DNA from: a virus
Length of the DNA stretch: 53,380 bases
Virus record (IMG/VR): IMGVR_UViG_3300045988_159805
Direction: 5' to 3' (one strand)
Below, piece after piece: positions 167 to 53,104 of the stretch. The notes under the pieces are model-generated. The model ran no database searches. It was not told the DNA's origin and worked only from the letters and a program-made list of their open reading frames with translations. How positions within the stretch are numbered: the first letter of the stretch is position 1; every line of letters starts with the position of its first letter. The position numbers and the translations under genes are program-made.

Positions 167-1042
167 TTAACCATTGTACACATATGTTACAGGGAATAAG
201 GTATCGATTTTATCATTTGTAATATCTTTACCTGCACCCTTTTGTGCAACGTATAACATCAACTCGTCTTTGTCATCTTCTTTAATCCATCCATCTTGTG
301 TAACATCTGCAACTGCTGCACACTTCAAAAAGGAATAATTTTTATACCAACTACTGTTTTTGTTTTTTAATTCTGCATCTAATTCAACTGTGCTTATCTT
401 ATTATCTTTTGCCTCAGCAACCATCTGCATCAAGTAGAAGATATCTGTTGTATCGACTTTATTGTTGCAGTTGATATCTCCTAATCTGACATACTCATTC
501 TGTGAAACCTTGACTGTTGCATCGGATGAACTAAAATCTTCATCAGGTTCATACCTATAATTATTGCTCGATTCACTTGGGCAACTGTAATCCACAAAAG
601 CAATCTTAAATTCATGTGTTCCTTTATCGTTCTTATCAATATCGTATTCGATATAATTTTCCAATACTCCGGAAGATGTTTTGCCCATCACACAAATGAG
701 AAAACTTTGATGATTTTCTTCATTATAGTAATAATTTGAAATTAATGCATCTTCAGGAGCAGAATATCTCGGGTCTTCTTGTGTGTGTTGTTTAGCCTTA
801 AATGCAGGGTCAGATTTAACTGCAATCGAATAGTTTGCAATACCTGGATTGTTTGTGATTTTTATTGTTAATCTGATTCTCGTATCAGATACCCTTGTGG
901 TGTACACTGTATACTCCATCTTGGTATTAAGACCATTGATGGTAAGCGCACTCGCCGGAACAGCCATTGCTCCGGACAGACCGGTTACGATTGCGCCAAC
1001 TGCCAGAACAGCAGCGGCTTTCGATAAAATCTTCTTTTTCAT
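167..1042 (-). CDS. secreted protein with C-terminal type-I dockerin module
   Basis: Trimmed from ORF 167..1252 to the internal start MKKKILSKAAAVLAVGAIVTG (signal peptide). C-terminus has two dockerin repeats (GDINCNNKVDTTDIFYLMQMVA; ADVTQDGWIKEDDKDELMLYVA). The gene is visibly AT-rich compared with its neighbours. Confidence 0.75.
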   Translation of the reverse strand: MKKKILSKAAAVLAVGAIVTGLSGAMAVPASALTINGLNTKMEYTVYTTRVSDTRIRLTIKITNNPGIANYSIAVKSDPAFKAKQHTQEDPRYSAPEDALISNYYYNEENHQSFLICVMGKTSSGVLENYIEYDIDKNDKGTHEFKIAFVDYSCPSESSNNYRYEPDEDFSSSDATVKVSQNEYVRLGDINCNNKVDTTDIFYLMQMVAEAKDNKISTVELDAELKNKNSSWYKNYSFLKCAAVADVTQDGWIKEDDKDELMLYVAQKGAGKDITNDKIDTLFPVTYVYNG

Positions 1043-1138
1043 ATCAATGAATCCCTTTCTAATCCTGTTTTTAGAAAAGCGCCTTTCTCTATCTTTAGTA
1101 TACACTATGATTTTCGAAAAGTCAATAGAAAAAGAAGA

Positions 1139-1201
1139 ATTCGACAAAATCTCGTGAACTTTTTTCCGACACATTTCGACATGGTTCGACAAAATTCGAC
1201 A
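1139..1201. promoter_or_regulatory. array of five TTCGACA motifs upstream of the 167-1042 gene
   Basis: TTCGACA/TCCGACA starts at 1139, 1166, 1175, 1185 and 1195. The last three are spaced exactly 10 bp apart. Confidence 0.4.
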
Positions 1202-1317
1202 AAACCAGGTTCTATTTATAGTATACGCTATTTCCCCGAAAATGTCAACCATTTTATGATGCGAACTTCAACAAAATATGACCATTCCTTTTGTGCATTT
1301 TGCAGAGCATCCGGAAC

Positions 1318-2202
1318 TCAGAAGTTTCCGGAAACGATCTGGTCGAACGTCAGCGGCATTCCTGCGCCGCCGTATGCGATATACACCATAAGATAGAACA
1401 GGTCGGTAGAGTCCACCGTGCCGTTCTTGTCAATGTCGCACGCCTCCGGAACGACCTCTGCCGGCGGCTCCTGTCCCACGGCACGCAGGGCGATGTAATA
1501 CATCAGATAAAAGGTGTCCGTGGCATCAATCTTGCCGCTGTTGTCCACGTCGCCCAGGGCATAGGGACGATACAGCAGGGAAATTTCACGGCTGACGTTC
1601 CAGTCCCCGTCATCTGTGATCTCCGACCGGGCAGAGGTGGCAGAGACCGGTGTGTCCATCCCGTCCGGGAATGTGACACTATAATAGTAGGTGCTGTTTC
1701 CCACCACCGATGCCTCCGACTTGGGGTCAGCGATGATGACGTTCTTGTCCTCGAACACAGCGTCGTCCGTTGCCGGCTCGCTGATGGTGACATTATAGAC
1801 AGACGCATACGTGCAGGTGAGCGCCTGGGTCGTGTATGTATTCCTGAACAGCGACGGATCCAGCGGCACTTCGTTGTAGTCCAGCAGCAGCACGTATTCC
1901 GTGATATCCGCATCTTTCGCCGGCGCTAAGTCCAGATCGTAGTAGACGGACGGCTTTTCGGAGGAATACTTGGTCACCTTGAGATGCACCGGATTGTCCT
2001 GCACCGATATGCTGATCCTGCCTGTGATCTGGCTTTCCGGGATGGGCTTTGTGCCGCCTGTGCCGGAGAGCCGGTCGCTTTTGTCCAGCTGGATGGTCTT
2101 TACCGTGGGCTGCTGCTCTTCAGCGGACGCAGCCCAGTACAGTCCCGGCATGGTGCAGCAGAGCGCTGCGGCAGTGATGCCTGCCAACAATTTCTGAAAC
2201 AT
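1318..2202 (-). CDS. secreted protein with C-terminal type-I dockerin module
   Basis: AAGGAGG RBS. N-terminal signal peptide MFQKLLAGITAAALCC. C-terminus GDVDNSGKIDATDTFYLMYYIA ... CDIDKNGTVDSTDLFYLMVYIA. Confidence 0.8.
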   Translation of the reverse strand: MFQKLLAGITAAALCCTMPGLYWAASAEEQQPTVKTIQLDKSDRLSGTGGTKPIPESQITGRISISVQDNPVHLKVTKYSSEKPSVYYDLDLAPAKDADITEYVLLLDYNEVPLDPSLFRNTYTTQALTCTYASVYNVTISEPATDDAVFEDKNVIIADPKSEASVVGNSTYYYSVTFPDGMDTPVSATSARSEITDDGDWNVSREISLLYRPYALGDVDNSGKIDATDTFYLMYYIALRAVGQEPPAEVVPEACDIDKNGTVDSTDLFYLMVYIAYGGAGMPLTFDQIVSGNF

Positions 2203-2214
2203 GGTACAGCCTCC

Positions 2215-2955
2215 TTAATACGGCATAGTGAACTGACTCACACGCCATGCGCCACGCTCCATGACCAGGGTGAAGGTGTCGGTCTGCTCTGAGGTGTCGC
2301 CGCTGTCCGGCTCTTCATAGGAGGCAGTGACGGAGAAGGTCAGCGTGCTGTCTGTGCTTGCGGTGAGCGCCGTCACCTTTGCGGAGACATAGGAGATATC
2401 GGCACCACGGTCGCCCAGTCTGCCGTAGAGCTTGTCGTCTACCATCTGGAACATTCCGTCGAAGTCGGATTCATGTCCGGACTGCGCAAAGACAGAATAG
2501 TATTCCGCCTCTGCCGCCTCGATGGAGTCGCAGCTGGTGATGCGCACATAGCCGTCCTCGGTGGTGTCGCTGTTGTCATAGGTGAAACAGTCGCTGGTGC
2601 AGCGATAGGTGTAATAGGTCTGGCAGGCGGTGTCGTAGATCTGCTGTGCCTGCGCCACCCACTGGTCGGCAGTCATGCCGGTGTCGCCGATGGTCTCCTG
2701 GCTCTGTGCCGCCGGAGCATCTGTGGTCTCGGCGGTGCTTTCCTCTTCCGATGCGGAGAGGTCGGTGTCCGTCTCGGCAGTTTCTGCCGCAGGCTCGGTC
2801 TCGGCGGTCTCTGCCGGAGCAGTGGTCTCGGCGGCGGTAGTTGCCGCATTCATGTCCACCTGGGTCTGGCTGCCGTCGGAAACGTCTGTACAGCCTGTCA
2901 TCAAAGCCGCCATGGTGCAGAGTGCAGCAAAGGCAGCCATCATTTTCTTTTGCAT
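2215..2955 (-). CDS. lipoprotein, unknown function
   Basis: Trimmed to MQKKMMAAFAALCTMAALMTGC (lipobox LMTGC) with a GGAG RBS. An acidic Thr/Ala/Glu-rich linker is followed by a globular C-terminal part. Confidence 0.7.
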   Translation of the reverse strand: MQKKMMAAFAALCTMAALMTGCTDVSDGSQTQVDMNAATTAAETTAPAETAETEPAAETAETDTDLSASEEESTAETTDAPAAQSQETIGDTGMTADQWVAQAQQIYDTACQTYYTYRCTSDCFTYDNSDTTEDGYVRITSCDSIEAAEAEYYSVFAQSGHESDFDGMFQMVDDKLYGRLGDRGADISYVSAKVTALTASTDSTLTFSVTASYEEPDSGDTSEQTDTFTLVMERGAWRVSQFTMPY

Positions 2956-3375
2956 GAAAACTCCTTTCACAAAAGGGCGTGTTTCTGTCACGATCCCGGT
3001 GCATTCCCCTCAGAGCGCTGCACAGCGTCCCCCTGCACCCGTGGATCTCCGCTGCACCAGCCAAAGCGTATCCCGGTGCAGTTACCCCTGTCCTCTATTA
3101 TACCACGGCTTTTCGGAAAAGGCAAGCATTTTCTGATGGAACAAACTGCGAGGTGTCCGGCGTTTTCATGGCGTGAATTTTTCATCGTAGGGTGAATGCT
3201 GTTCGCCCGTTGGGATGCCTTTTCTTTTTGGAAAAAGGTCGGGTCGATGTGGCTTGCTATCCTTGGTCAAGTCTGCCGTCGCCATTTCCGCTGGGCGACG
3301 GGCTGGGCATCGACCCCTACGGATTTCACGCTGCGAAATCCTGCAAGTCTGATTTTTCACACTATAATCAAAAAA

Positions 3376-3466
3376 GAAATAACCGCCCCAGAACTGCAAA
3401 ACTCGGACAGTTATTTCTAAAATAATCTTACCTTGGGAGCAGACCGTCTACTGGTATGCTCTTTCT
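3376..3466 (-). ncRNA. degenerate copy of the candidate antisense sRNA (see 3755-3840)
   Basis: Minus-strand promoter TTGACA(3496-3501)-17 nt-TATCAT(3473-3478). The body is near-identical to the 3798-3840 copy. The terminator stem is partly eroded. An upstream remnant ...IFHTIIKKE resembles the toxin C-terminus. Confidence 0.35.
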
Positions 3467-3561
3467 ACTTCTATGATACGCCGGAATGCTCTGTTTGTCA
3501 AGGGCTTTTGTGAAAAGGTTTTGCATCATGTGGGCGAACACTGCCCGTCTCTGTGGTAAAT

Positions 3562-3590
3562 TTGACAATTTTTGCAGAGTGTGGTATACT
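3562..3590 (+). promoter_or_regulatory. sigma-A type promoter for the small hydrophobic peptide gene
   Basis: TTGACA(3562-3567)-17 nt-TGgTATACT(3582-3590). Confidence 0.6.
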
Positions 3591-3655
3591 GGTTTTTGAG
3601 GGCATACCAATAACGGTAGGCGGTCTATTCCAGCTCCCGGAAGGGAGTGAGTAGT

Positions 3656-3763
3656 ATGGAATACGTAACTTGGTCAGATTTGATTCAGTACAGTATCCTG
3701 ATCGTTGCTATTATAGCAGTGATGCACGATATTTTCCATAACAACGACAACAAACGGAAATAA
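3656..3763 (+). CDS. 35-aa hydrophobic peptide, type-I toxin / holin-like toxin candidate
   Basis: Not in the ORF track (<60 aa). RBS GGAAGGGAG. Translation MEYVTWSDLIQYSILIVAIIAVMHDIFHNNDNKRK has one TM helix and a basic tail. It is followed by a bidirectional hairpin and a convergent promoter. Confidence 0.55.
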   Translation: MEYVTWSDLIQYSILIVAIIAVMHDIFHNNDNKRK

Positions 3764-3840
3764 CCGCCCCGACTGCTAAACCTGGGCGGTTATTCAAAAA
3801 CGCTATAAGGGAGCAGACCGTCTACTGGTATGCTCTTTCT
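3755..3840 (-). ncRNA. candidate cis-antisense sRNA (antitoxin-like) convergent with the peptide gene
   Basis: Minus-strand promoter TTGACA(3870-3875)-17 nt-TATAAT(3847-3852). The hairpin AATAACCGCCC...GGGCGGTTATT (3764-3797) plus a U-rich tract on the minus strand overlaps the 3' end of the peptide ORF. Confidence 0.45.
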
Positions 3841-4111
3841 ATTTCTATTATACGCCGGAATGCCCCGTTTGTCAAGGGCTTTTTTGTTGTTTGACAAATT
3901 GTGTGGTGTCCGGCGTTTCGATCGTGTAAATCTTTCCCTGTGCAATGTGATTGGAAACCCAGGGGCGAACGATGTTCGCCCCTACGGGTTTGTTTGCAAT
4001 GTGTTTTTATTGCAGGGACTTTTCAAAGATGCAGCATCCTAAACGCACTCCTCACCCCAAAACCAAAAAGCACGCAACCCCGGGAACTTCCCGAAACTGC
4101 GTGCAAATTCT

Positions 4112-4156
4112 TGGAGCTGTTAACCAGATTCGAACTGGTGACCTCTTCCTTACCAA
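4112..4156. repeat. att copy 1: 45-nt duplicate of the tRNA-Thr 3' segment (outer junction of the satellite-like element)
   Basis: Identical to 13398-13442 and 42353-42397. Imperfect similarity extends ~55 nt leftward through a terminator-like hairpin (4058-4105). Confidence 0.85.
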
Positions 4157-5094
4157 AGTGAAGAAACACCTTTTCAACTCTTTTCAATTCTGCTGAAACC
4201 AACGCATTTCCCGCACTTTTCCCGTTCCCGCCTGTTGAAATCTGTTGCCATCTGTAGTGCCCTAACCGGCTTTTAGTGCCCTCATAGTGTCCTCGCAGTG
4301 TCCTCGATCTGATCGGCGGTGCCTGCTGCATATCCCCGCAAAGGCGAACCCGCCCATTTTTGAGCAGCTTGCTTTGTGCGTGGTGAAATCCCGCAAAGGG
4401 GGCTATTGCTCATTTTTGAGTAATAGGTCTGACGGCAAGGCAGGCTCCACAGTCTAACCTAGCGTAAACCCGCCCCAGAAAAGCCCCGTGCTGCCCTCTG
4501 AGCCGTTCTGCCTGCTCTTTCGGAAAGGAACCAGAGGAAACGCAAGGTGGCTCTGCGGGGCTTGTGGAGGTGTCTATGTGTATTTCTGTGTACAAGCGGC
4601 TTTTCTGCTCTGCTGCCTTTTTGCGTGAGATCGGCACAGAATTGTGCCCACTCCACAAATTGCGGAGCGACACGAAACTACAACCCGTCAATTTGTCGCC
4701 CAGTCCCCAGCGACAAGGGCGTAACTCTGGCGGACACCCTGAAACGGGGTAGTGCAAAAGGGAGTAGCGAAACGCGACACCCTCGCAAAGGGTAGGAACG
4801 AAATTCCGCACCCTGTTCTGCTGACCGGAACCAGATTCCGTGCATCTGTCCAGAGCGGCAGCACGAAAAATATAAACTTCTGGATTTTTCAGAGGCATGC
4901 ACCCACGCAGAGAGCCTCTGTGCGGCTCTGTACGGTGTTTTCCTGTGCCGGTCGGGTGCTTTCCCGTGGAGCAGGACGGACGGCTTACAAGGGTGTACAG
5001 CGTGCGGAAATGTTGAGAAATGTTGAGGTTTTCAAAAAATACAAAAAAAAGGGCAGACGCTGCCGCCTGCCTTTTGTGTGTTGTGTCTTGATGC

Positions 5095-5568
5095 TCAGAG
5101 TTCCACAGGCAGTGTGGAAAGCTGCCGGAGCTTTTCCTGTGCTGCTGCCTGCTCTGCGTCGGTGAAATCCTTGTCAACATTGTTCGCCCGAAAGCGGTAA
5201 TAACACAGTATTTCTTCCCTTGTCTGCTGTGCCACACGGTACTGAACGGAAATAGGAACGCATGCACACACTTTCGGCGGCTGGTCGAATCCCCGCAGTT
5301 CTGCCGGAAACTTCCCACCATGGGCAAACCACAAAAACGTCTGCACTGCAACGGCGTTCGGAATATAGCAATGATGCGAATAATACACCTTTACGGTACG
5401 GAAAAGGAAAATGCGTAGCGTTTCATAGAGCATCTGAAAGCGGTCATGTCTGTAGCCGTATTCGGACGGCTGAAACGTCTTTGCTGCCTCTGTGTAGCAC
5501 CAGCAGAACAAAAGCCGCCGCTGCCGGTCTAGCTGGGTTTCTCTGTCCAGCTGCAAAATACTTTTCAT
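5095..5568 (-). CDS. hypothetical protein
   Basis: Trimmed to MKSILQLDRETQ with a GGAGGA RBS. A bidirectional hairpin terminator lies just downstream (5050-5085). Confidence 0.55.
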   Translation of the reverse strand: MKSILQLDRETQLDRQRRLLFCWCYTEAAKTFQPSEYGYRHDRFQMLYETLRIFLFRTVKVYYSHHCYIPNAVAVQTFLWFAHGGKFPAELRGFDQPPKVCACVPISVQYRVAQQTREEILCYYRFRANNVDKDFTDAEQAAAQEKLRQLSTLPVEL

Positions 5569-5695
5569 GTGTAGAAATTCCTCCTTGACATACACCAAAA
5601 AACGTGCTATAATCACTATCAAGCATTTTTTCAGTGCTTATGGTTTGGCTCTCCTGTGTTCCTTGGTCGGTTTTGCAGGAGGGCTTTTCTTTTGG

Positions 5696-5965
5696 TTATC
5701 GCTGGAGCAGGTCAAACGCCGCACTTGTTTCCAGCGATAAAGCCTCCGTACTGTGTTCTTTCAGCCACTGCACAAGCTTTGCGGTGGTCTGTTGTACATC
5801 TTCGCCGTCGTAGAGTTCCGGGTGTTGCAAGCGTGATTGCAAGCACCGGAGCTGCCACTTGTAATCGCTCATCATTTTCAATTCGATCACGGGCACGCCC
5901 TGTGCATATTCCTCCACCGTGTATGTTGTTCCGGCAATTGTGCACGTTTCTGCTGTCTGGTTCAT
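5696..5965 (-). CDS. hypothetical protein
   Basis: Trimmed to MNQTAETCTIAGTTY with a GAGGTGA RBS. Confidence 0.5.
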   Translation of the reverse strand: MNQTAETCTIAGTTYTVEEYAQGVPVIELKMMSDYKWQLRCLQSRLQHPELYDGEDVQQTTAKLVQWLKEHSTEALSLETSAAFDLLQR

Positions 5966-6071
5966 AGTATCACCTCGCTTTTTTGTTCCGCAAAAGCCGT
6001 TTCGGTTTTCTCCTGCTCTCTGGGTGAGTTTTCCGCTGCCTGTCGCTTTCACTGTCTATATTATATCATAC

Positions 6072-6165
6072 GTGTACAAGTATATCAATTGGCAGAATCA
6101 ACAAACTTGTACAAGTATATTTGGTGATTTTTATACTTGTACAAGTTCTTGAATTGTGGTATAAT
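6072..6165. promoter_or_regulatory. three palindromic CTTGTACAAG operators overlapping a TGnTATAAT promoter
   Basis: Operators at 6072-6084, 6106-6119 and 6132-6146. The -35 TTGTAC (6137-6142) lies inside the third operator, followed by a 17-nt spacer and the extended -10 TGgTATAAT (6157-6165). Confidence 0.6.
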
Positions 6166-6223
6166 ATTTGTAGAATAGGAGTGGTGTCTGTACAAAGCAC
6201 CCGTTTATAAAGGAGGAAAAACA

Positions 6224-6445
6224 ATGGCAGGAAACGCAAGCACAAGGGCTAAAAACAAATACGCCGCAAGTAACTATGATAGCCTTCGTATTGTTGTCCC
6301 CAAAGGCAGCAAAGCCATTATTAAAGCCGCCGCAGAACAAACCACGGGCGGCAGTATCAACGGATATGTAAAACACGCCATTAACGAACAGCTGAAAAAA
6401 GATGGTTTCACGGAGATGCAAAAGCAAGGCAACGACGAAGAATAA
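6224..6445 (+). CDS. small DNA-binding protein, ribbon-helix-helix-like (putative)
   Basis: AGGAGG RBS. Pattern NYDSLRIVVPKGSKAIIKAAAEQTTGGSINGYVKHAINEQL resembles RHH-type regulators of plasmids and IMEs. Confidence 0.5.
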   Translation: MAGNASTRAKNKYAASNYDSLRIVVPKGSKAIIKAAAEQTTGGSINGYVKHAINEQLKKDGFTEMQKQGNDEE

Positions 6446-6474
6446 GCCTGCTCCGTGGAAAAGAGGTGGAAACA

Positions 6475-6693
6475 ATGCCGATCAAGTATGACAAGCTAAT
6501 CAAACGTATGCAGGAAGCAGGCATTACAAGCTACACGATAAAACGGGATAAGATCATAGGGCAAGCAACGTATAAGAAAATCATGGAGGGCGGCGATATT
6601 GACACTAGAACAATCGCAAAACTCTGCAAAGTGCTACACTGTCAGCCCGGCGATCTCATGGAGTACACAGAGGAGGACAACGAGCAGGCATAG
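6475..6693 (+). CDS. XRE/Cro-type helix-turn-helix protein
   Basis: GAGGTGG RBS. Motifs GITSYTIKRDKIIGQATYKKI and IAKLCKVLHCQPGDLMEY are typical HTH_26/XRE-like. Confidence 0.6.
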   Translation: MPIKYDKLIKRMQEAGITSYTIKRDKIIGQATYKKIMEGGDIDTRTIAKLCKVLHCQPGDLMEYTEEDNEQA

Positions 6694-6760
6694 AACGAAA
6701 ACCGCATACCACACAAAAAGCCGACTGCACAGGGCACACACCCCGCAGCCGGCTTTTCTG

Positions 6761-7492
6761 CTATTCTCTGCACTGCTGCACAAGATCGAAACGATCTGGC
6801 AAGTATTCCATATGCTGCACAGCGTTCCACCGCTTGTGTGCTTGGTATTCCCGCCGCAGTTCTTGCAGCACCGAAGAACGCCGCAGCTCCTGCAAAGCTT
6901 TGCTTTTCTTGTTGGAAACATTCTGGTAAGTACAGCCCCACCGCTGGGCGATGTCCACGAGGGAAACACCTTGAAAGAAATACAGTTCAATCACTTCCCG
7001 CAGACGTTCCGGCAGTCTGTCCACTGCCTCATGCACAAGGCGGCTTTCTTCGTCCTGCTCCAGCTGAGATAATACCGCCGTTTCAATGTCTGTCCCCTTG
7101 TCTGGCAAGATGTCCGCAAGCGTTACCTTGCCTTCCTCTGACTGGTTCTTGATCGGCATATCCAAAGAGGCAGCCTCGTTCAGCGGCTCCCGTTTGGTGG
7201 AGCGTGTCCCCGTCAGCTCTGCAAGCAGCGTGTGGAACGGATAAGACAAGTAGCTGATGAACTTAATGCCTGTTTCCGGCTTGTACCCTTTGAGAGCACT
7301 CAGAAACGCCGTATAGCAGCCTTGCCGAATGTCCCATAGTTCCACGCCGCACTGCTGGAAAACGCTCTGGCGGGCGTTATAGGTTTGTTTGGCTTTCAAC
7401 CAGAGCAACGGCTTTACTTTCTCCCAGAGTAGGGGCACGAGTTCTTCGTTTTCCGGCTGTTGTGCCAGTGCCGCCAGCTGTTCATTTGTCAT
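6761..7492 (-). CDS. sigma-70 family RNA polymerase sigma factor-like protein
   Basis: Trimmed to MTNEQLAALAQ with a GGGAGG RBS. Region-4-like segment LPERLREVIELYFFQGVSLVDIAQRWGCTYQNVSNKKSKALQELR. Confidence 0.65.
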   Translation of the reverse strand: MTNEQLAALAQQPENEELVPLLWEKVKPLLWLKAKQTYNARQSVFQQCGVELWDIRQGCYTAFLSALKGYKPETGIKFISYLSYPFHTLLAELTGTRSTKREPLNEAASLDMPIKNQSEEGKVTLADILPDKGTDIETAVLSQLEQDEESRLVHEAVDRLPERLREVIELYFFQGVSLVDIAQRWGCTYQNVSNKKSKALQELRRSSVLQELRREYQAHKRWNAVQHMEYLPDRFDLVQQCRE

Positions 7493-7715
7493 TCCAGCAA
7501 CCTCCCTTTTCCGGAATACCCCCGCCCGTTCATTCTGCGATCTCCTGCACGGCATTGGGCTCCGGTCTTTTCATAGCCTGCTCCGTGGGGATTTTCACAC
7601 CCCCACGCTCTCCGGCTCACCTGCTCTCGTGCGTGCGTGTGACGATGTCAGTTTACGCCGCTTTTCTCGTTCTCCCGTGCGTGTGACGATGTCAACAAAC
7701 GTCAAAATAGGCTGT

Positions 7716-7937
7716 TCAGTCGATATCGAAGAACTTGTCACCTTCACGCAGTGAGATAGCAAGGCTTTCCCATTTTGTCCGTGCTACAAAAGAAGACGGA
7801 CACTCACAAATTACAACGTAGTCCTCATAGTCTACCATGACACCAACTATTTTTGTGCTGTCGTCAGGTGAGATCAGAACAACTTGCAAATTATCTGTGT
7901 TGAAAATTCTTCTCATTTGTTTGTTGATGATGTACAT
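7716..7937 (-). CDS. hypothetical protein
   Basis: GGAGG RBS directly upstream of the ATG. Confidence 0.5.
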   Translation of the reverse strand: MYIINKQMRRIFNTDNLQVVLISPDDSTKIVGVMVDYEDYVVICECPSSFVARTKWESLAISLREGDKFFDID

Positions 7938-7968
7938 AAAAAGTTACCTCCTAGTCGGTTTCTCTCGG

Positions 7969-8316
7969 TTAGTTCTCTGTTCGTTCCGTTTCCTGCAACG
8001 CATACAGCACCGCCTGCACAGTACGAATCCCGCCCCGCAGCTGTTGGCGTTCCTGCGGCTTGTCCTCCGGCTCTGCCTCTCGTTCCAGTCGCTCCAGATG
8101 TCCGCACAAGCTAAGCAAGTACGCCTGCCAGAACGCCACGGACTGCGGCTTGCGGCTTGCCAGAGCCTGCTCCACGTTCCGGAACGCTCCGGCATAGTAC
8201 GGGGCATCAGTGGGAATGTCGGCACGCTGGAGGGCTGCGGCGGCGGGGTTTGGCGGCGGAGCAGGCGGGGCAGCAGTTACGTTCAGCATCTCTTGAAACA
8301 CGTTTTGAAACTCCAT
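7969..8316 (-). CDS. hypothetical protein
   Basis: Trimmed to MEFQNVFQEML. The upstream part of ORF 7969..8508 is a translated repeat array. Confidence 0.45.
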   Translation of the reverse strand: MEFQNVFQEMLNVTAAPPAPPPNPAAAALQRADIPTDAPYYAGAFRNVEQALASRKPQSVAFWQAYLLSLCGHLERLEREAEPEDKPQERQQLRGGIRTVQAVLYALQETERTEN

Positions 8317-8341
8317 GAAATTCTCCGTTTCTTGAAAATTG

Positions 8342-8560
8342 TTCCCACACTTCCCACACTTTTTGAAAACCGCCGAAATTGCGTCGCTTTTTGCAATTTT
8401 CAGACTTCCCACACCCATTCCCACACCTTTCCCACACCCCCACAGTGAGGGAGAATGTGGGAAACTGCGGGAAACACCTTTTTTCATTTTCCCACACAGG
8501 AAAAGCACGCAATTTCGGTATGTTTTTTAAGTTTCAGCGGCTTTGTGGGAAGTGTGGGAA
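8342..8560. repeat. iteron cluster (TTCCCACAC x6 direct, GTGGGAA x3 inverted): putative replication origin of the element
   Basis: Direct copies begin near 8342, 8351, 8406, 8419, 8430 and 8489. Inverted copies are near 8456, 8545 and 8553. The cluster lies immediately downstream of the DUF3987 gene. Confidence 0.55.
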
Positions 8561-8566
8561 GCTTTT

Positions 8567-10324
8567 TTATAAATCTGCATATAAAAAGGGCGATGCGTAC
8601 ACAAGTTTTTTGTTCCCGGTGCAGACGGTTTGCAGCACATTTCGTTCTTCCAGCGTTTCCAGAATACCCCGGAACTGTTCCATGCTGCTTAATTCGCCGC
8701 CTTTTACTTTCATGTAAAAATCACGCTGCGGCAGATATGCAGCCCCTTTTTCCAGCGTATGCCGCACAAGGGCACACGTTACACGCTGCACCAGCTTTTC
8801 CTCTCGATTTTCTTCGGTCTGCATTTCTTTCAGTTTTTCACCGAAAAAGAATTGACATATCTGCACGGCACGGTCTGCGGTTTCGGCAGAGATCGGCGTG
8901 CACTGGTCATATCCCCACAACAGATGCAGCAGCCCGGCAATACGAATCAGCTTTCCACCGGCTTTTCCGGTATAAGCCGATTGCTTTTCCATAACATCAC
9001 CGGTTTGCATTGTGTTTTCAATCCATTGCAGATATTTTCCGAGATTGGAAGATTCGCTGCACAGTTCCTTTGCAAACCGCAGCACCGGCACTGCCTGCTC
9101 TTCCGGTCGTTCCATGTCCAGAAACTTCCGCAGGATTCCCTCGTAGATTTCACCGCCGGACAACTGAAAAATATCATTGTTGATCGCTTTTCGTGTGCCC
9201 GCCATTCTTTCGGGAACACAAAACAAGAAGCGTGCGATGCAGCCACGCCCCTGCAAATTCTGATTGGCAATGATGCGGTTATAGAGTTCCGGCTGCAACA
9301 TCAGACACATAGACAGCAGCGGACGCTCCAGCACCAGTTCCTCACGGGAAACACGGTTGACACGCACCGGCTCGGCGTTGTAAGCTTTCAGTACCAGTTC
9401 GGGGCTTTGGTTTTTGCCCTTGTCTGTATACCGCCCCGCCAGTATTTCCATAAAAGCGGCTTCTTCGGAAAAAATGCCGCCGTTCTCGCCGGATTCCAGC
9501 AGCTTTTTCGCCAGAGCCTCCGGCGTTGTATCATCAAATAAGCAATAGGGATTCCGTGGCGGTTTCTTCTCCGCCAGCTGTTCCTCTAGTCCGGTGATGT
9601 CGTCAACTGCTGTTGCAGCTTTTTCTTTGCTTGTGCAGCCTTTTTCCGCTGCCTCCAGCTGTTTCAGCAGCACCTTTCTCTCTGCCTTATATCGTGCTTT
9701 CTCTGCTTCATAGTCGCCCTTTACGTCGTTGTACCACTTGTAAAACGGCTTTAAGATCACTTTCTTGAACACCGGGCTTTTTCTTTCGCTGGGGTCTGCA
9801 ACAATGCCGATATACAAGCACAAATGCTGCTGGTAGCGGGTAGCGTCCGGATACTCCACTTTGTACTTCCCTTGTGTGCAGAGTGCCAGAGCCGCCAAAG
9901 CTGCCGGATAAACCATTTCACGCCGCACCTGCTCCTGCTTCGCCACATTATCCAGATACTCCTCAATCACTGGCGGAAACACGCCCGCAGGGAAAACCGG
10001 CTGCAGATCTTTCTCCTGCTGTTTTTCTGTGATTTTTTGCCAGCCGCCCTCGCTCATGACAGCATCGGCTCTTTCCATTGTCTTTTTGAGCAGGCTGCAA
10101 AGTTCCGGCGGAATTGCCTTTGCATCTACCAGCTTTGCCTGCGTCGCCTCCAGAAATTTCACAGCCTCCGCACTGCTTTTGCTGAAAAGTGCAGCGTGGC
10201 ACAGTGTGTGCAGTTCGCTTGCGATCGCCGCAGCCGGCAGCCCCTCAATATATCCCCGCCAGTTTCCTTGTGAGATCATATCCACATATTGCAAAAACAG
10301 CGGTTTTTCTTCTTTTGCTTTCAC
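8567..10324 (-). CDS. DUF3987 (YfjI-like) domain protein, putative replication/primase-helicase-type protein
   Basis: Segment GGIFSEEAAFMEILAGRYTDKGKNQSPELVLKAYNAEPVRVNRVSREELVLERPLLSMCLMLQPE matches my memory of the DUF3987 core. Confidence 0.6.
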   Translation of the reverse strand: MKAKEEKPLFLQYVDMISQGNWRGYIEGLPAAAIASELHTLCHAALFSKSSAEAVKFLEATQAKLVDAKAIPPELCSLLKKTMERADAVMSEGGWQKITEKQQEKDLQPVFPAGVFPPVIEEYLDNVAKQEQVRREMVYPAALAALALCTQGKYKVEYPDATRYQQHLCLYIGIVADPSERKSPVFKKVILKPFYKWYNDVKGDYEAEKARYKAERKVLLKQLEAAEKGCTSKEKAATAVDDITGLEEQLAEKKPPRNPYCLFDDTTPEALAKKLLESGENGGIFSEEAAFMEILAGRYTDKGKNQSPELVLKAYNAEPVRVNRVSREELVLERPLLSMCLMLQPELYNRIIANQNLQGRGCIARFLFCVPERMAGTRKAINNDIFQLSGGEIYEGILRKFLDMERPEEQAVPVLRFAKELCSESSNLGKYLQWIENTMQTGDVMEKQSAYTGKAGGKLIRIAGLLHLLWGYDQCTPISAETADRAVQICQFFFGEKLKEMQTEENREEKLVQRVTCALVRHTLEKGAAYLPQRDFYMKVKGGELSSMEQFRGILETLEERNVLQTVCTGNKKLVYASPFLYADL

Positions 10325-10340
10325 CGGCTCTCACCGCCTC

Positions 10341-10607
10341 TCACAGACGCACCGGCACAGGCTGAATGCCGGCGGTGTGCTGTTCAGGCGGGACGGTGTG
10401 GACATCGTCCCCTACAGCCTCGCAGTTCAAAAACGCCGCAAATTTCTCTTGGTTAATGAGGTAGCGGCTGCCGATCTTCACCGTAAAGGCTGCACCCCGC
10501 CGACTTCTCGCCAGTTTCCGCACAGCGTAGGACGAAAGCCCGAACGCTTTTGCTGTGGTGTCAATGCTTTCCATGTGGGGAACGGTATATGTAAAATCTT
10601 TATTCAT
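10341..10607 (-). CDS. excisionase-family / MerR-like HTH DNA-binding protein
   Basis: ESIDTTAKAFGLSSYAVRKLARSRRGAAFTVKIGSRYLINQEKFAAFL is a typical excisionase-type HTH. Confidence 0.6.
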   Translation of the reverse strand: MNKDFTYTVPHMESIDTTAKAFGLSSYAVRKLARSRRGAAFTVKIGSRYLINQEKFAAFLNCEAVGDDVHTVPPEQHTAGIQPVPVRL

Positions 10608-10624
10608 TGATTCATTCCTTTCTC

Positions 10625-10889
10625 TTGAAAACCTGCTCCGGATATGCTATAATAGGAGCAGGCTATTTTTGAATAGTCTATTTGAAATTTAACGTGCGAA
10701 ATGCACGGGCGTGTGTCTGTTGGTAGCGGGTACACGCCTTTTTCTTTTGCCTTGGTGGGTGTCTTGTAGTGTGCATGGTTTTTCTCTCGCTTTCTGCCGG
10801 TCGTTCCGAAATAGTGGCAAACAGTGGTGTCTCTCTGTTCGCTCTTTGTTCGTTGGGTTTTGCTTTCCATTTTTGGAAAGCGTTTTTTT
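10625..10889 (+). ncRNA. candidate ~230-nt transcript antisense to the cro-like/xis-like leader
   Basis: TTGAAA(10625-10630)-17 nt-TATAAT(10648-10653). Canonical terminator GCTTTCCA-TTTT-TGGAAAGC plus T7 (10862-10889). No convincing ORF or RBS lies between them. Confidence 0.4.
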
Positions 10890-11067
10890 ATGCCTGCTCT
10901 GCTTTTAGCTGGTCGATGGCGGCAAGCACCTTTGCAGCGTCTGCCTCACTCAACGGCTTTCGCAGCTTTCGGCTGAAATTGCCGTCATTGATTCCCAGCT
11001 TTTCCGCAATCTGCCACAGGCAAACGCCGTTCTGCTTTGCAAGCTGTTTTACTTCTGTTCCGGTCAT
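10888..11067 (-). CDS. 59-aa Cro-like HTH regulator
   Basis: Not in the ORF track. RBS AGAGGTGA. Translation MTGTEVKQLAKQNGVCLWQIAEKLGINDGNFSRKLRKPLSEADAAKVLAAIDQLKAEQA. Confidence 0.6.
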   Translation of the reverse strand: MTGTEVKQLAKQNGVCLWQIAEKLGINDGNFSRKLRKPLSEADAAKVLAAIDQLKAEQA

Positions 11068-11097
11068 GGTATCACCTCTTTTCCTTGCAACAACAAT

Positions 11098-11192
11098 ATT
11101 TTAGCATAAATAAGTTGAAAAGTCAACCCATAGAATAAAATAAACCATGTAAATATTTTTTGGTTGACAACAACAACAGAAAATGATATAAT
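11098..11192. promoter_or_regulatory. back-to-back divergent promoters of the element's genetic switch
   Basis: Minus strand: TTGACT(11121-11126)-17-TAAAAT(11098-11103). Plus strand: TTGACA(11164-11169)-17-TATAAT(11187-11192). Confidence 0.6.
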
Positions 11193-11251
11193 GCAATAGA
11201 AGAAATAAAATTGCAAAATAGATGATTTTTGCAGATAAGGTGGTTTTTATT

Positions 11252-11974
11252 ATGGCATTGACGATTTTTGCAGAGCGAATGAAACAAGCGAGAACCGGAG
11301 CAGGCATGAAACAGAATGAACTTGCAAAAGCTGTTGGCGTTACCCCGGCGACGATCTCAGCCTATGAAAAAGCAAGCACAGACGGAAACGGAAAAAATCC
11401 GACACTGGAAAACGCACAGAAGATTGCAAAGGCTCTCGGTGTTTCTCTTGATTGGATTTGCGGAAACGGTCAGCCCACACCGGACGACGTGACAAGCTTT
11501 TCTTTGCAGGACTACTTGAAAAGTGTTGCGATTGCTTTGTATGAAATGAGTGTGAAAAGCGAATACGACAAAGAAAACGGACACGCAACAATATACATTG
11601 AGAACCCGGCAATTGCTCTTTTTGTTACAAAAGTGCAGCAGCTGCTTTTCGTGTATAGGAGCGGAACGCTTACGAGGGAAATGTACAATGATTGTATAAA
11701 AAGACTTGTCACCGGATTTAAGGGGCATTGTTTTGACTTCGGAAATCTTTTGACAGAGGGAGAGGCGTTGGACGCTGAAAGTTCTGTTGATGACATGGTC
11801 TCAAATTACCCCGAAGTTATAGGGACTAGCAGCATTGAAACAACACTTCTTGACCGCTATAGTTCAAACAATGTGGGTAGAGAAGTAAATTTATTGATAG
11901 AGCCGGAATTTTGGCAGCACTACGAAGAACAGGAGGCGAACAACCATGCCCAACATCACACAACGGAAGAATAA
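11252..11974 (+). CDS. XRE-family repressor with C-terminal domain
   Basis: Trimmed to MALTIFAERMKQARTGAGMKQNELAKAVGVTPATISAYEK (classic XRE HTH). Co-directional with, and overlapping, the integrase gene. Confidence 0.75.
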   Translation: MALTIFAERMKQARTGAGMKQNELAKAVGVTPATISAYEKASTDGNGKNPTLENAQKIAKALGVSLDWICGNGQPTPDDVTSFSLQDYLKSVAIALYEMSVKSEYDKENGHATIYIENPAIALFVTKVQQLLFVYRSGTLTREMYNDCIKRLVTGFKGHCFDFGNLLTEGEALDAESSVDDMVSNYPEVIGTSSIETTLLDRYSSNNVGREVNLLIEPEFWQHYEEQEANNHAQHHTTEE

Positions 11975-13217
11975 AGCCGGCGAGGTGATCTCCTACCGAA
12001 TTCGTGTCAGCCGCGGCTACGACAGCGAGGGAAACAAGCTGAAACCCCACGAAATGACGTGGAAACCCAGCCCCAGCATGACACCCCGACAGGCGGAAAA
12101 AGAGGCACAGCGGCAGGCGTTGCTATTTGAGGAGCAGTGCAAAAACGGGCTTGCTGGTGATGCAAGCCGCATCACCCTTGCGGAATTTGTCCCGGTATAT
12201 CTGGAGCAGAAACAGCAGACACTTTCGCCGATGGTTCTTGAAATGTATTGCCGGGTAATCGATCAAAAAATACTGCCTGCTCTGGGACATCACAAAATAC
12301 AAGATCTTCGCCCAGTCCATGTGCAAGCATTTATCCAGCAGCTGTGCAGCATAGACAAGCGAAACCGGGACGGCTCAGACAGCGAAGAAAAGCTTTCGGC
12401 TGCCAGTGTCAAGCGGTATCTTACAGTGTTGCAGTCTATGTTAAAACTTGCCGTAAAGCGGCGGATTATCAGCGAGAACCCAGCACGGGCGGAGCTGCTG
12501 GACATACCGAAAGCCACTGCCCCGAAGATCGATATTTTCACCAAACAAGAGGCAGCTGTCATGCTGGAGGCACTGGAGCAGGAGCCGCTGCAATTTCAAG
12601 TGCTGATACAGCTTGCTATTATTACCGGTGCAAGACGTGGGGAGCTGGTGGCACTGCGATTTTCTGATATTGACCGGAAAACTCGCAAAATCACCATTGA
12701 ACGGGCTGCGATCAAGCGAACAGGTCAGCCGCCGGAGATCAAACCGCCGAAAGATTATGAAGTACGGAGCGTAACGGTTACGCCGGCGTGTATTGAACTT
12801 GTGGACAAACTGGAGCAGGAGAAACGGGCACAGCGGCGGGCTCTGGGCAGCTACTGGAACGAGGGCGGCTGGCTGTTTACACAGGAAAACGGGGACATGA
12901 TGAACCCGCAAACGCCCACAAAGCAATTTTCAAAGTTTCTGAAACGGCATGACTTCCCGCACCGGAAATTTCACGCACTGCGGCACACTTCGGCGACGCT
13001 GCTTTTATACGGCGGTGTTAGTCTGAAGCAGGTGCAGGGACGGCTCGGACATGGGGATATCGAAACCACAAACAAGTACCTGCATTGCTTGCAGGAGGCA
13101 GACGAGGAGGCGGCTTGCGTGCTGCAAAGTATGCTGACAGTCAGCCGAAAGCCCAAACCGGAGCAGGCACAGACAAAGGCAGCGGCAGAGCCAAAGCAGG
13201 CGAAAGCCGGGGCATAA
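11946..13217 (+). CDS. int: tyrosine site-specific integrase
   Basis: GGAGG RBS. N-terminal arm-binding-like MPNITQRKNKAGEVISYRIRV. C-terminal HALRHTSATLLLYGGVSLKQVQGRLGHGDIETTNKYLH. Confidence 0.9.
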   Translation: MPNITQRKNKAGEVISYRIRVSRGYDSEGNKLKPHEMTWKPSPSMTPRQAEKEAQRQALLFEEQCKNGLAGDASRITLAEFVPVYLEQKQQTLSPMVLEMYCRVIDQKILPALGHHKIQDLRPVHVQAFIQQLCSIDKRNRDGSDSEEKLSAASVKRYLTVLQSMLKLAVKRRIISENPARAELLDIPKATAPKIDIFTKQEAAVMLEALEQEPLQFQVLIQLAIITGARRGELVALRFSDIDRKTRKITIERAAIKRTGQPPEIKPPKDYEVRSVTVTPACIELVDKLEQEKRAQRRALGSYWNEGGWLFTQENGDMMNPQTPTKQFSKFLKRHDFPHRKFHALRHTSATLLLYGGVSLKQVQGRLGHGDIETTNKYLHCLQEADEEAACVLQSMLTVSRKPKPEQAQTKAAAEPKQAKAGA

Positions 13218-13220
13218 CAA

Positions 13221-13267
13221 AAGCCGCCGCAGGGTGCATGATACACCTTGCAGCGGCTTTCTTTTTG
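13221..13267 (+). terminator. intrinsic terminator after the integrase gene
   Basis: Imperfect ~16-bp stem AAGCCGCCGCAGGGTG/CACCTTGCAGCGGCTT followed by TTTCTTTTT. Confidence 0.5.
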
Positions 13268-13397
13268 TCGGATTTTGTTGGACTTTGCAGGGACTTTTCG
13301 AGGGCTTAGTGTCCTGATAGTGCCCTAAGCGTATTTCCCACCCTAAAACCAAAAAGCACGCAACCCCGGAAACTTCCCGAAATTGCGTGCAAATTCC

Positions 13398-13442
13398 TGG
13401 AGCTGTTAACCAGATTCGAACTGGTGACCTCTTCCTTACCAA
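13398..13442. repeat. att copy 2: shared junction between the satellite-like element and the prophage
   Basis: 45/45 identical to 4112-4156 and 42353-42397. It carries the same post-core AAAG as copy 1, where the tRNA copy has AAGG. Confidence 0.85.
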
Positions 13443-13568
13443 AGCATCTGTAAAAGTCAGAAGTATCACGAAAGCACGAGAGAAATGCGATAAAAACAGA
13501 CGGTGTCAAACAACTCAGATATAAAATAAAATGAGAAAAAATAATCCTAACGTCGTACTAGTGTCGTA

Positions 13569-23321: not shown

Positions 23322-23858
23322 ATGAAAACAGCCATTATAATTATTATCACTGTCTTTACAACGTTATTTTGTGTTTTCTCAGCCACAGCTGACTACTGTG
23401 ATCTAACCCAAGAAGAGTACGAAAAAAGAATGGAAAAAAATTTTTCTCGTGGTTTGGAATTGGGTTATGCACAAGGAAAGCAGGAAGCAATGAAGATTAC
23501 ACCCAAAGAGCAGGCCGGAGGTGAAGCCATGACACAGGAACAGGCAAAGAAAAAAGAATGGCTGCAACGCTGCCTGCACGAAACACAGAAGCTGGAAGCC
23601 ATGACGATGTGTGGCAAGTATACAGAAACAGAATGTTCCCAGACAGAGCAGGTCGTACAGCAGACACAGCAAGAGATCAAGTGTTGCATTGCCGCTCTAA
23701 ACAATCCAGAACTGGAAGCTGTGCTGATTCGGCGGTACATTGTGTTCCAAAGCTGGGAACAGATTGCAGAGGAAATGCACTACTCTGTCCGGACGATACT
23801 ACGCCGCCACACAGACGCTTTGGAAAAGTTGTCACTGAATGGCACTTGCTGTCATTGA
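23322..23858 (+). CDS. late-gene activator-like protein (sigma-70 region-4 / ArpU-RinA type) with N-terminal TM extension
   Basis: C-terminus LEAVLIRRYIVFQSWEQIAEEMHYSVRTILRRHTDALEKL. An in-frame internal start at 23529 with a GGAGGTG RBS would give a 109-aa soluble form. Confidence 0.55.
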   Translation: MKTAIIIIITVFTTLFCVFSATADYCDLTQEEYEKRMEKNFSRGLELGYAQGKQEAMKITPKEQAGGEAMTQEQAKKKEWLQRCLHETQKLEAMTMCGKYTETECSQTEQVVQQTQQEIKCCIAALNNPELEAVLIRRYIVFQSWEQIAEEMHYSVRTILRRHTDALEKLSLNGTCCH

Positions 23859-42352: not shown

Positions 42353-42428
<76 letters not shown>

Positions 42429-44692: not shown

Positions 44693-44813
44693 TAATTTGA
44701 TAAATAAAGTTGGAATTATATTGGACTTTTGTATAAAGTGCATAAAATTAAAACTGTAATCGTTAGCTTGTTTATACTATTTGAATTAAAATAATGTGAG
44801 AGGAATGATTAAA

Positions 44814-47375: not shown

Positions 47376-47394
47376 AGAGAAAGGAATGATAGAT

Positions 47395-47877: not shown

Positions 47878-47895
47878 AATGAATCTTTTTCTGCA

Positions 47896-48558: not shown

Positions 48559-48590
48559 TAAAAATAATCAATAAGGAGGCTTTTTTATTT

Positions 48591-50384: not shown

Positions 50385-50402
50385 TAAGAAGGTGATGTTA
50401 AA

Positions 50403-51134: not shown

Positions 51135-51151
51135 AGAAAAGAGGAAAAGAA

Positions 51152-52978: not shown

Positions 52979-53053
52979 AGCCGATGTATAACACATAAAA
53001 TCGCTCTAAAATACTGGCTATAGTCGCCATAAAACAACGATACACATTAAATC

Positions 53054-53083: not shown

Positions 53084-53104
53084 GTCAATTTTCCAAAAAA
53101 ACCA

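Follow-up and report, generated by a model that had tools for sequence, protein, structure and literature searches.

Organization of the element and its integration site

A 9.3-kb element lies near the left end of a 53,380-nucleotide stretch of DNA (IMG/VR record IMGVR_UViG_3300045988_159805), which was analyzed at its full length and is referred to here as the window. The host of the window DNA is Ruminococcus bromii, and a copy of the helicase gene of the element with 98% identity is found in an R. bromii genome assembly. A preliminary description of the window had placed at positions 4157-13397 a satellite of the phage-inducible chromosomal island (PICI) type, next to a prophage that was considered its potential helper. 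The element is real, and the limits proposed for it run from the end of the left attachment (att) core to the start of the middle core. It is a discrete, site-specifically integrated element that is carried by some strains and not by others. The features of the element and of its surroundings are given in Table 1.

The element is flanked by a 121-nt direct repeat (93% identity between the two copies, spacing 9286), and within each copy lies an exact 45-nt core that corresponds to the 3′ end of tRNA-Thr(ggt). The core occurs three times in the window, the third time in the intact tRNA-Thr gene, and the locus therefore reads as a tandem array in the order of chromosome, att, 9.3-kb element, att, 28.9-kb prophage and tRNA-Thr. 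This arrangement directly supports insertion into the 3′ end of the tRNA-Thr gene, which would be carried out by the tyrosine integrase predicted from the element itself. A 14-mer, CCGAAATTGCGTGC, is found exactly in the iteron/origin region (8505-8518, minus strand) and in the terminator stem of the integrase-side att arm (13377-13390, plus strand), with near-copies in the other att arm (4091-4104, plus strand) and in the origin (8373-8386, plus strand). There are 6 matches in the window against 0.6 expected, and the 14-mer may be a shared protein-binding site that couples excision with replication.

Table 1. Positions of the features of the 9.3-kb element and of the adjoining prophage and tRNA gene in the window
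Feature	Position	Strand	Remarks
Distal att repeat	4038-4158		Displaced tRNA-Thr 3′ end (core 4112-4156) and downstream terminator of the tRNA (4070-4104)
Non-coding arm, about 0.9 kb	4159-5090		No credible open reading frame (ORF); conserved in relatives
157-aa cargo protein	5095-5568	-	25 homologue clusters (alignment A3)
Promoter and structured RNA of about 80 nt with terminator	5585-5700	+	Runs antisense to the 89-aa/157-aa gene spacer
89-aa protein, upstream partner of the 157-aa gene	5696-5965	-	94-95% identity in L009 and L014
Back-to-back cargo promoters	6060-6176		6088-6060 (-); 6138-6165 and 6149-6176 (+); three ACTTGTACAAGT palindromes
Two small regulators, exchangeable cargo slot	6224-6693	+	73-aa ribbon-helix-helix-like (6224-6445) and 72-aa HTH_26 (6475-6693)
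Sigma-70-family factor, 243 aa, regions 2 and 4	6761-7492	-	TIGR02937; phrog_351, E 6.5e-20
Two exact 18-nt direct repeats, GACATCGTCACACGCACG	7632-7693	-	44 nt apart, upstream of the sigma gene
73-aa protein	7716-7937	-	61-100% identity, close relatives only
115-aa helical protein	7969-8316	-	Family-wide; 52-95% identity in all relatives
Iteron cluster, putative replication origin	8342-8560		Nine GTGTGGGAA copies in both orientations, directly past the helicase stop codon
DUF3987 helicase, putative replication initiator, 585 aa	8567-10324	-	PF13148, E 7e-73; phrog_2373 "DNA helicase", E 1e-63
Candidate Xis/AlpA-like HTH_17 protein, 88 aa	10341-10607	-	Weak matches
Antisense RNA, about 95 nt	10625-10748	+	Promoter TTGAAA-17-TATAAT (10625-10653), three hairpins, terminator; opposite the leader of the Xis-like/helicase operon
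Cro-like helix-turn-helix (HTH) protein, 59 aa	10888-11067	-	phrog_17740, E 3e-11, and weak HTH matches; first gene of the leftward operon
XRE-family repressor	11222-11974	+	N-terminal HTH_3, E 1e-16; likely start codon 11252
Tyrosine integrase, 423 aa	11946-13217	+	Phage_integrase PF00589, E 6e-24
Proximal att repeat	13324-13444		Core 13398-13442; boundary common to element and prophage
Complete HNH/terminase prophage, 28.9 kb	about 13445-42352
Prophage ORF directly upstream of HNH/terminase	23322-23858	+	Weak Sigma70_r4, DUF1492; phrog_36 and phrog_248 ("transcriptional regulator/activator")
tRNA-Thr(ggt), sole intact copy in the array	42353-42428	-	Integration target; carries the third core copy (42353-42397)

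Integrase and regulatory switch

All ORFs of at least 59 aa were compared with the Pfam, PHROGs and NCBIfam families. The integrase and the repressor genes are read in one direction, and the leftward operon that diverges from them consists of the 59-aa gene, a 280-nt leader, the 88-aa gene and the DUF3987 gene. The family matches, the promoters and the iterons agree with the gene order that had been proposed for the element, including its likeness to an int-stl / str-xis-pri-rep-ori layout, in which the integrase and repressor oppose the Cro-like gene, the Xis-like gene, the helicase gene and the iteron origin. Divergent near-consensus promoters are located between the repressor and the Cro-like gene (11098-11126, minus strand; 11164-11192, plus strand). 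These features directly support a predicted phage-type switch, with the XRE repressor facing the Cro-like gene across consensus promoters.

The 59-aa Cro-like protein is 81-96% identical in most relatives of the element and 47% identical in the relative L003, and the 88-aa protein is conserved at 72-97% across the family. The match of the 88-aa protein to HTH_17 (22.7 bits) falls under the Pfam cut-off of 27, and it also matches the PHROG excisionase family phrog_16129 (E 4e-4). The repressor has a C-terminal domain of about 165 aa that is swapped between relatives, with at least four unrelated C-terminal types in the family. Elements that are otherwise 95-98% identical have unrelated domains, and the type found in the window reappears (56%) in the most distant relative. 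In being unrelated between near-identical elements, the repressor C-termini resemble the Stl repressors of the Staphylococcus aureus pathogenicity islands (SaPIs). In the metagenome collection, 2472 index blocks contain the exact integrase protein.

Replication module and antisense RNA

The replication module is the best-supported part of the element. The helicase motifs P-S-E-R-K-S, DDTTPE and RGxxxRF are intact and align with those of distant DUF3987 proteins. The family searches detected no primase domain in the 585-aa protein, so that priming by the host would be expected, and no solved structure was found for it by sequence. One DUF3987 protein has been shown experimentally to be a 5′-3′ helicase that replicates its integrative element (PMC11724360), and helicase activity of the 585-aa protein is predicted by analogy with this family member.

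The iterons are exact in 7 of the 9 copies, no exact copy is present elsewhere in the 53-kb window, and their count was matched by 0 of 100 shuffles. The cluster is found at the same position in every relative. In L021, which has a helicase with 43% identity, the repeat is TGTGGGTA, present in eight copies and replacing TGTGGGAA. The iteron sequence thus shifts together with the helicase, which is the pattern expected of an initiator that recognizes its own origin.

The antisense RNA opposite the operon leader has a fold z-score of -3.4. Five relatives of distinct sequence (L003, L009, L014, L019 and L021) retain its promoter and terminator, even at 43-64% helicase identity, and covariation is thin, with one compensatory base pair among six sequences. 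By analogy with plasmid copy control, we infer that the RNA may act as a counter-transcript and keep the expression of the replication operon in check. A palindrome, CCTGCTCC ... GGAGCAGG, extends across the promoter of the RNA and shows compensating changes in L019.

Sigma factor, small ORFs and cargo

The sigma-70-like factor mentioned in the preliminary description proved to be a complete protein with regions 2 and 4, and thus extends beyond region 4 alone. It matched TIGR02937 with 70.1 bits (cut-off 42.9) over profile positions 8-163 of 165, and both Sigma70_r4 and r4_2 exceeded the Pfam cut-offs. The gene is found in the window, L003, L009 and L014, while L017 and L023 have a regulator with region 4 only in its place. 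It is absent from L001 and L008, the helicases of which are 97-98% identical, and is split in L066 and L071. The sigma gene, being absent, replaced or split in these relatives, is an accessory gene in the family. The GACATCGTCACACGCACG repeats upstream of it are the only two matches in the window when up to 3 mismatches are allowed (0 expected), and none is located in the prophage.

Between the sigma gene and the origin, the 73-aa protein (7716-7937) has no family match in Pfam, PHROGs or NCBIfam. The 115-aa protein has 136 homologue clusters and no Pfam match (AlphaFold pLDDT 75), and it is the sole conserved gene without an assigned function downstream of the origin.

The far end of the element holds the cargo. 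Members of the 157-aa family have an invariant N-terminus (MKSILQLDRExQLDRxRR), an invariant C-terminus (FTxxEQxxAxxKLxxLxxxPxxL) and a hypervariable center. The 157-aa protein has no match in Pfam, PHROGs, NCBIfam or PADLOC, and its model (AlphaFold pLDDT 85) is a confident all-helical bundle with no significant match in the PDB. In some relatives, the gene of this family comes after a 66-aa gene in a toxin-antitoxin-like layout. The 89-aa protein has no family match in Pfam or PHROGs. The promoter of the structured RNA at 5585-5700 is a perfect TTGACA-17-TATAAT with a TG extension, the RNA has a fold z-score of -5.1, and the segment at 5577-5741 is 96% conserved despite the differing downstream genes. 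This RNA may be an RNA antitoxin or a regulator. The three ACTTGTACAAGT palindromes (6068-6156) are probably operators in the cargo promoters and are distinct from the iteron cluster.

In the cargo slot, the 73-aa ribbon-helix-helix-like protein matched phrog_13890 (E 5e-14) and the 72-aa protein matched HTH_26 (E 1e-11). Relatives have in this slot HicAB with an Arc-like gene, ParE, a ribbon-helix-helix-like gene with a 134-aa gene, or a zeta toxin. A PADLOC defense search of the element matched only the generic HTH of the repressor, and Rfam searches (gathering threshold for the window, E-value threshold for 3000-6300) returned only two tRNAs and noise. The non-coding arm is 83-94% identical in relatives with different adjoining cargo, and ORF calls in it are inconsistent among relatives. 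Candidates for its content are integrase/Xis arm sites near att and a cis site for transfer.

The element family in Ruminococcus

Helicase homologues with 44-100% identity are numerous in gut metagenomes, and in every contig examined the DUF3987 gene is located within a 7-12-kb element (sizes 7.4-11.7 kb). The shared set consists of the integrase, the XRE repressor, the 59-aa and 88-aa genes, the DUF3987 gene, the iterons, a member of the 115-aa family and variable cargo. The size and the core genes (integrase, Cro-like, Xis-like, DUF3987 and 115-aa) are kept down to 43% helicase identity, and neither structural nor conjugation genes were found in any family member examined. Relatives are integrated at tRNA-Thr, tRNA-Pro and other sites; at tRNA-Pro(cgg), the same set of core genes with a 71-73% identical integrase lies between perfect 48-nt repeats. 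These comparisons directly support that the integrase, the repressor and the toxin-antitoxin-like cargo, as judged from their sequences, are exchanged as modules between relatives. The family is common in R. bromii and its relatives, and the literature searched contained no description of it, or of satellites or comparable islands in Ruminococcus or other Clostridia.

The phage-type integrase, switch and helicase, and the PHROG matches of several genes, might have been expected from a decayed prophage remnant that was stripped of its structural genes. Such an origin is scarcely credible. Relatives with as little as 43% helicase identity have the same small set of genes in an element of the same size class, flanked by intact repeats at several att sites, and neither pseudogene fragments of structural genes nor DNA similarity to deposited phages was observed.

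A profile search of IMG/VR returned one relative beside phage head genes, in addition to many distant phage helicases. This relative, L023 (UViG_3300029488_000034), is an 11.7-kb family member at about 921-12636 with a helicase of 65% identity. It encodes an integrase, an XRE protein, a Cro-like protein, an excisionase-like protein, DUF3987, a 149-aa ORF at the position of the 115-aa gene, a zeta toxin pair and a phrog_36 regulator. The element sits between the N- and C-terminal halves of the major head protein gene of a Ruminococcus-type phage, with the head protease gene and the head-tail adaptor gene on either side of the split gene in the proper order. When rejoined, the halves give a protein of 398 aa that is 76% identical to the major head protein of deposited Ruminococcus phages, NatCom_23091 among them, in a single unbroken alignment covering 99% of its length. 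Just within both ends of the element lies a direct repeat of 21 nt, TGGCACTATTCTGGCACTAAA. L023 is a single case, and it nevertheless shows a direct physical interplay of the element family with phages.

Just past the split capsid gene of L023 (13279-15098), a truncated plus-strand head-tail adaptor ORF overlaps convergent ClpP-protease and portal genes on the minus strand, a layout which suggests that this phage head module was rearranged, or received an insertion, a second time. The relative L021 was also considered for a phage flank and was set aside, as its flank was not phage-like in PHROGs.

The neighboring prophage

The prophage adjoining the element is complete, as had been described, with HNH and terminase genes and with the 45-nt core at both of its boundaries. 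Among its genes are those for an integrase, an ImmA/CI-type repressor, a replication organiser and loader, a methylase, RusA, the activator located upstream of the terminase gene, HNH, TerL, portal, protease, major head protein, tape measure and endolysin.

The position of the element beside this prophage invites the view that it is a satellite specifically of the prophage, which would induce it and, by means of a common cos site, package three of its copies (about 9.3 kb each) into a 28.9-kb head. The two are in tandem at one att core, and the length of the element is about one-third of that of the prophage (9.29 vs 28.9 kb). However, they share nothing apart from att: a blastn comparison (word size 7) gave only chance-level matches, the best of which was 25 nt and lay inside coding sequence, the integrases are 21% identical, and the repressors are alike in the HTH only. 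The sizes within the family (7.4-11.7 kb) also argue against a fixed one-third ratio, and no prophage was located within 6-10 kb of the relatives integrated at tRNA-Pro and elsewhere.

The occupancy of the tRNA-Thr site points in the same direction. All four states, namely empty, element only, prophage only and both, occur in R. bromii contigs. Among contigs with the exact VanY neighbor, some sites are empty and have a single tRNA-Thr and a single core, some have only the element, with two cores separated by 9.1-9.3 kb, and some are occupied by the prophage. Of the 24 longest contigs with the exact element integrase, 22 lacked the prophage and had the element directly beside tRNA-Thr and the VanY gene, and 2 contained both. 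In the contigs listed for the exact prophage integrase the prophage was alone in 11 of 19 and paired with the element in 8. These sets of contigs are not random samples, but they give no indication that one of the two depends on the other. The suggestion that the prophage is a potential helper was thus not borne out. The shared att core reflects a tRNA hot spot, of which the prophage is an independent tenant. It is very improbable that the neighboring prophage is the specific helper of the element, and a satellite tied to this one prophage through a shared cos site is to be doubted just as strongly.

It had further been suggested that the sigma-like factor could redirect late transcription. 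The prophage ORF at 23322-23858 is probably the late-gene activator, and the families that it matches, phrog_36 and phrog_248, are also matched by the regulators of L017 and L023 and, more weakly, by the sigma factor of the window, a point that speaks for the suggestion and for a satellite of this prophage. The sigma gene, on the other hand, is not a constant part of the family. The sigma factor and the prophage activator have in common a region-4-type DNA-binding domain, which is no proof of common target promoters.

At doubly occupied sites, the prophage is always between the tRNA and the element, which indicates that the prophage arrived after the element. Together with the presence of an identical integrase in 2472 index blocks, at the same site in all long contigs read, and with the sigma gene that is broken in some copies, this order could reflect a largely immobile, vertically inherited island that is kept for its toxin-antitoxin/defense cargo and its sigma factor, with the mobility genes as relics. 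We consider this improbable. Empty sites are present in strains with an identical flanking VanY protein, the same set of core genes is found with other integrases at tRNA-Pro and elsewhere, with perfect 48-nt repeats, and the core ORFs are all intact, with conserved helicase motifs and iterons.

Structural, packaging and transfer genes

No ORF of the element matched a capsid, tail, lysis, terminase, relaxase or type IV secretion system (T4SS) family in Pfam, PHROGs or NCBIfam, which agrees with the earlier statement that genes of these kinds are missing, and no capsid, portal or head-tail connector genes of its own were found within 4159-13323. A megablast search with the whole element against phage and plasmid collections also gave no similarity.

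A relaxase would have made the element an integrative and mobilisable element (IME). Relaxase families had no match in the element or in the precomputed Pfam lists of its relatives, although an origin of transfer (oriT) without a relaxase is not recognizable by these searches. Many mobilisable elements reportedly lack a relaxase of their own. The element could accordingly be independent of phages and move by oriT-only conjugative mobilisation or by natural transformation, in which case the switch would control excision and copy number only. The lack of any packaging function in the searches and the conserved 0.9-kb non-coding arm, which could hold an oriT, are compatible with this, and the StCI islands of Streptococcus thermophilus move by competence (PMC13376191). 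In contrast, no relaxase, coupling protein or T4SS genes were found in the approximately 10 family members examined, and L023 targets a phage capsid gene. In addition, an iteron/helicase replicon with a replaceable Stl-like repressor is typical of satellites and less so of mobilisable elements. A phage-independent element is unlikely, but it is an alternative to be taken seriously.

Comparison with known satellites and islands

The element was compared with the five core components of PICIs as used by SatelliteFinder (PMC10085698). The integrase is present, as is a replication module with an origin (DUF3987 and the iterons). The candidate for a regulation module (an alpA, merR or stl homologue) is the XRE repressor facing the Cro-like gene in a Stl/Str-like layout, with the HTH_17 match below the cut-off. 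The absence of tail, holin, structural and lysis genes, which is also a PICI trait, holds for all ORFs of at least 59 aa. The small terminase and the capsid morphogenesis genes were looked for and were not found, and the att site is shared with a prophage; thus, the element is not a PICI by membership. If the candidate regulation module is counted, the element has three of the five core parts ("type C"), and it is best described as an island that works like a minimal PICI.

In terms of organization, the element is similar to SaPIs and other PICIs in its size class, its att-adjacent integrase, the repressor facing a Cro/Str-like gene, the Xis-like gene, the helicase-type initiator with an iteron origin directly downstream, the repressor diversity in near-identical islands, the accessory genes at the far end, and the lack of tail and lysis genes. 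It differs from them in having no small terminase, capsid-size or packaging-interference genes and no separate primase, in its DUF3987 helicase, in sharing att with a prophage, and in its full sigma-70 gene and the antisense RNA at the operon leader; also, it is known from sequence alone, which sets it apart from the StCI islands as well.

The StCI islands are described as "type C/D PICI", and their induction by phage and their transfer by competence have been shown experimentally (PMC13376191). Like the element, they are Firmicute islands between direct repeats with integrase, regulatory and replication genes, an incomplete set of PICI markers and defense-type cargo, and they are common in strains without a complete prophage. 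Several integration sites and integrase types occur in one family, as they do in the family of the element. The host class of the element is Clostridia, unlike that of StCI, and the likeness is one of description.

DUF3987 is a marker of the PICMI satellites, which are defined by an integrase, AlpA, a DUF3987/DUF5906 primase, a Fis regulator and integration at fis (PMC10803314). The PICMI satellites of Vibrionaceae are similar to the element in their reduced gene content, the lack of capsid-remodelling genes, and the combination of an integrase, an AlpA-like HTH (PF12728) and DUF3987. They differ in their Gram-negative hosts, their virulent helper phages and their definition by fis, and the element has an XRE/Cro switch. 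No Fis-type (PF02954) match was found in the element, which is integrated at tRNA-Thr, and its AlpA-like match is weak. The AgaPP/AgaPH elements (PMC11724360) are integrase-bearing and tRNA-adjacent and use a DUF3987 helicase for their own replication, as is predicted here, but they have PriCT-DUF3987, a primase-polymerase and an Argonaute, none of which the element has.

The P4-like satellites carry an integrase, a regulator of the AlpA type and a replication protein that works at an origin of its own, as the element appears to do. P4 encodes an activator of helper late genes (Delta) and has RNA-based immunity, both of which are functional analogies to the element. Unlike P4, the element lacks homologues of psu, delta, sid and epsilon as well as a primase domain, and its sigma factor, which only some family members carry, has no relation to Delta. 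In summary, the element is not a PICMI, a capsid-forming PICI (cfPICI), a P4-like satellite or a relaxase-bearing IME.

Other features of the window and flanks

The left chromosomal flank (3435-3886) contains a 35-aa hydrophobic ORF (3656-3763, MEYVTWSDLIQYSILIVAIIAVMHDIFHNNDNKRK) with its own promoter (3562-3590), followed by a terminator. A perfect minus-strand promoter (3875-3847) converges on this ORF in a layout that resembles a type I toxin-antitoxin system. A 78-nt piece is duplicated at this locus (3435-3512 and 3809-3886), and similar copies are found elsewhere in R. bromii contigs (L003, 186-516 and 14135-14487). In L003, which is an R. bromii contig, tRNA-Thr(ggt) is present upstream of the element as two complete genes at a distance of 843 nt (11-929), and the spacer between them is the type I toxin-antitoxin-like repeat, which in the window lies on the other side of the element. 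This indicates that the tRNA-Thr region itself has been rearranged between strains.

To the right of tRNA-Leu(tag), a block of low GC content (44800-53380; 33-38% vs about 45-52% nearby) encodes a DUF87/HerA-like ATPase and five unannotated proteins. Strains that have an identical VanY neighbor lack this block (L076-L078 and L080), which makes it a second variable island in the window.

Discussion

The element is precisely bounded and mobile on a population scale and, by every sequence criterion applied, competent for replication, and it is very probably an active or recently active integrative replicon. Whether it also responds to phages in the manner of a satellite is close to evenly balanced. 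The layout, the self-contained replicon, the Stl-like diversity of the repressor, the toxin-antitoxin-like cargo, the constancy of the family and the precedent of StCI all point to a PICI-like, phage-responsive element. As an overall reading, we regard a site-specific island that replicates on its own and behaves like a minimal "type C PICI" or StCI-like phage satellite as having an even chance of being correct.

A number of results weigh against this reading. Two of the five PICI core components, the small terminase and the capsid morphogenesis or size-redirection genes, are missing in the family searches and the structure models, and no packaging-interference gene was found in Pfam, PHROGs or NCBIfam. 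The preliminary description had suggested a search for small-terminase-like or capsid-redirection functions among the hypothetical ORFs by structure prediction, and neither the model of the 115-aa protein nor that of the 157-aa protein had a significant match. For the 115-aa protein, the top PDB matches were the small terminase chains of HK97 (E 0.68, TM 0.40, not significant), and nothing was found in BFVD, by hmmsearch against PDB sequences, or by hhalign against the prophage ORF at the position of the small terminase gene. The resemblance is a lead only and was rejected as evidence.

A search for a cos-like sequence shared with the prophage had been proposed, and by blastn no cos- or pac-like sequence common to the two appeared. 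Nor was one seen to be shared with deposited phages, as the 1.5-kb left arm had no match in 50,697 phage records, and no close relative was found as a stand-alone IMG/VR record by single-protein patterns. Three Logan contigs of element length (9450, 8829 and 8826 nt) were considered as free circular or concatemeric forms and were rejected. They end inside the att repeat, and terminal overlaps of 12-17 nt are what is expected from assembly breaks there, so that they give no evidence of a circle. In classical PICIs, the att site is not used by prophages, whereas the 45-nt tRNA-Thr att core of the element is also used by one. Finally, the constant position of the prophage on the tRNA side fits an old, rarely moving resident.

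If the element is phage-responsive, the repressor would silence the leftward operon until a trigger is sensed by its replaceable C-terminal domain. Most probably, this trigger would be a protein made by a phage on infection or induction, as is the case for the Stl repressor of SaPIs. Release would allow expression of the Cro-like, Xis-like and helicase genes, leading to excision and to iteron-based replication with the primase and polymerase of the host, and the conserved antisense RNA opposite the operon leader would damp expression as in plasmid copy control. The cargo probably stabilizes the island or interferes with phages. The DNA could then be transferred in a helper capsid by means of a cis site in the 0.9-kb non-coding arm, or by release at lysis.

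A more elaborate version of this scheme is speculative and on the whole doubtful. It would hold that the family consists of satellites of gut Ruminococcaceae without packaging or capsid genes, which sense phages through interchangeable repressor domains and replicate from an antisense-checked DUF3987/iteron origin, some with sigma or region-4 regulators that are akin to the late-gene activator of the phage itself and activate the late operon of the helper, and at least one lineage splitting a phage major capsid gene.

In the human gut, Ruminococcus bromii has a key role in the degradation of starch. If the element is not phage-responsive, it serves as a warning that a PICI-like gene order beside a prophage is no evidence of a helper relationship. 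If it is phage-responsive, the satellite lifestyle would be extended to a major group of strict anaerobes, in the form of a compact system consisting of a replaceable repressor, an iteron/helicase replicon, an antisense RNA and exchangeable toxin-antitoxin cargo, which could influence phage sensitivity and gene flow in the gut.

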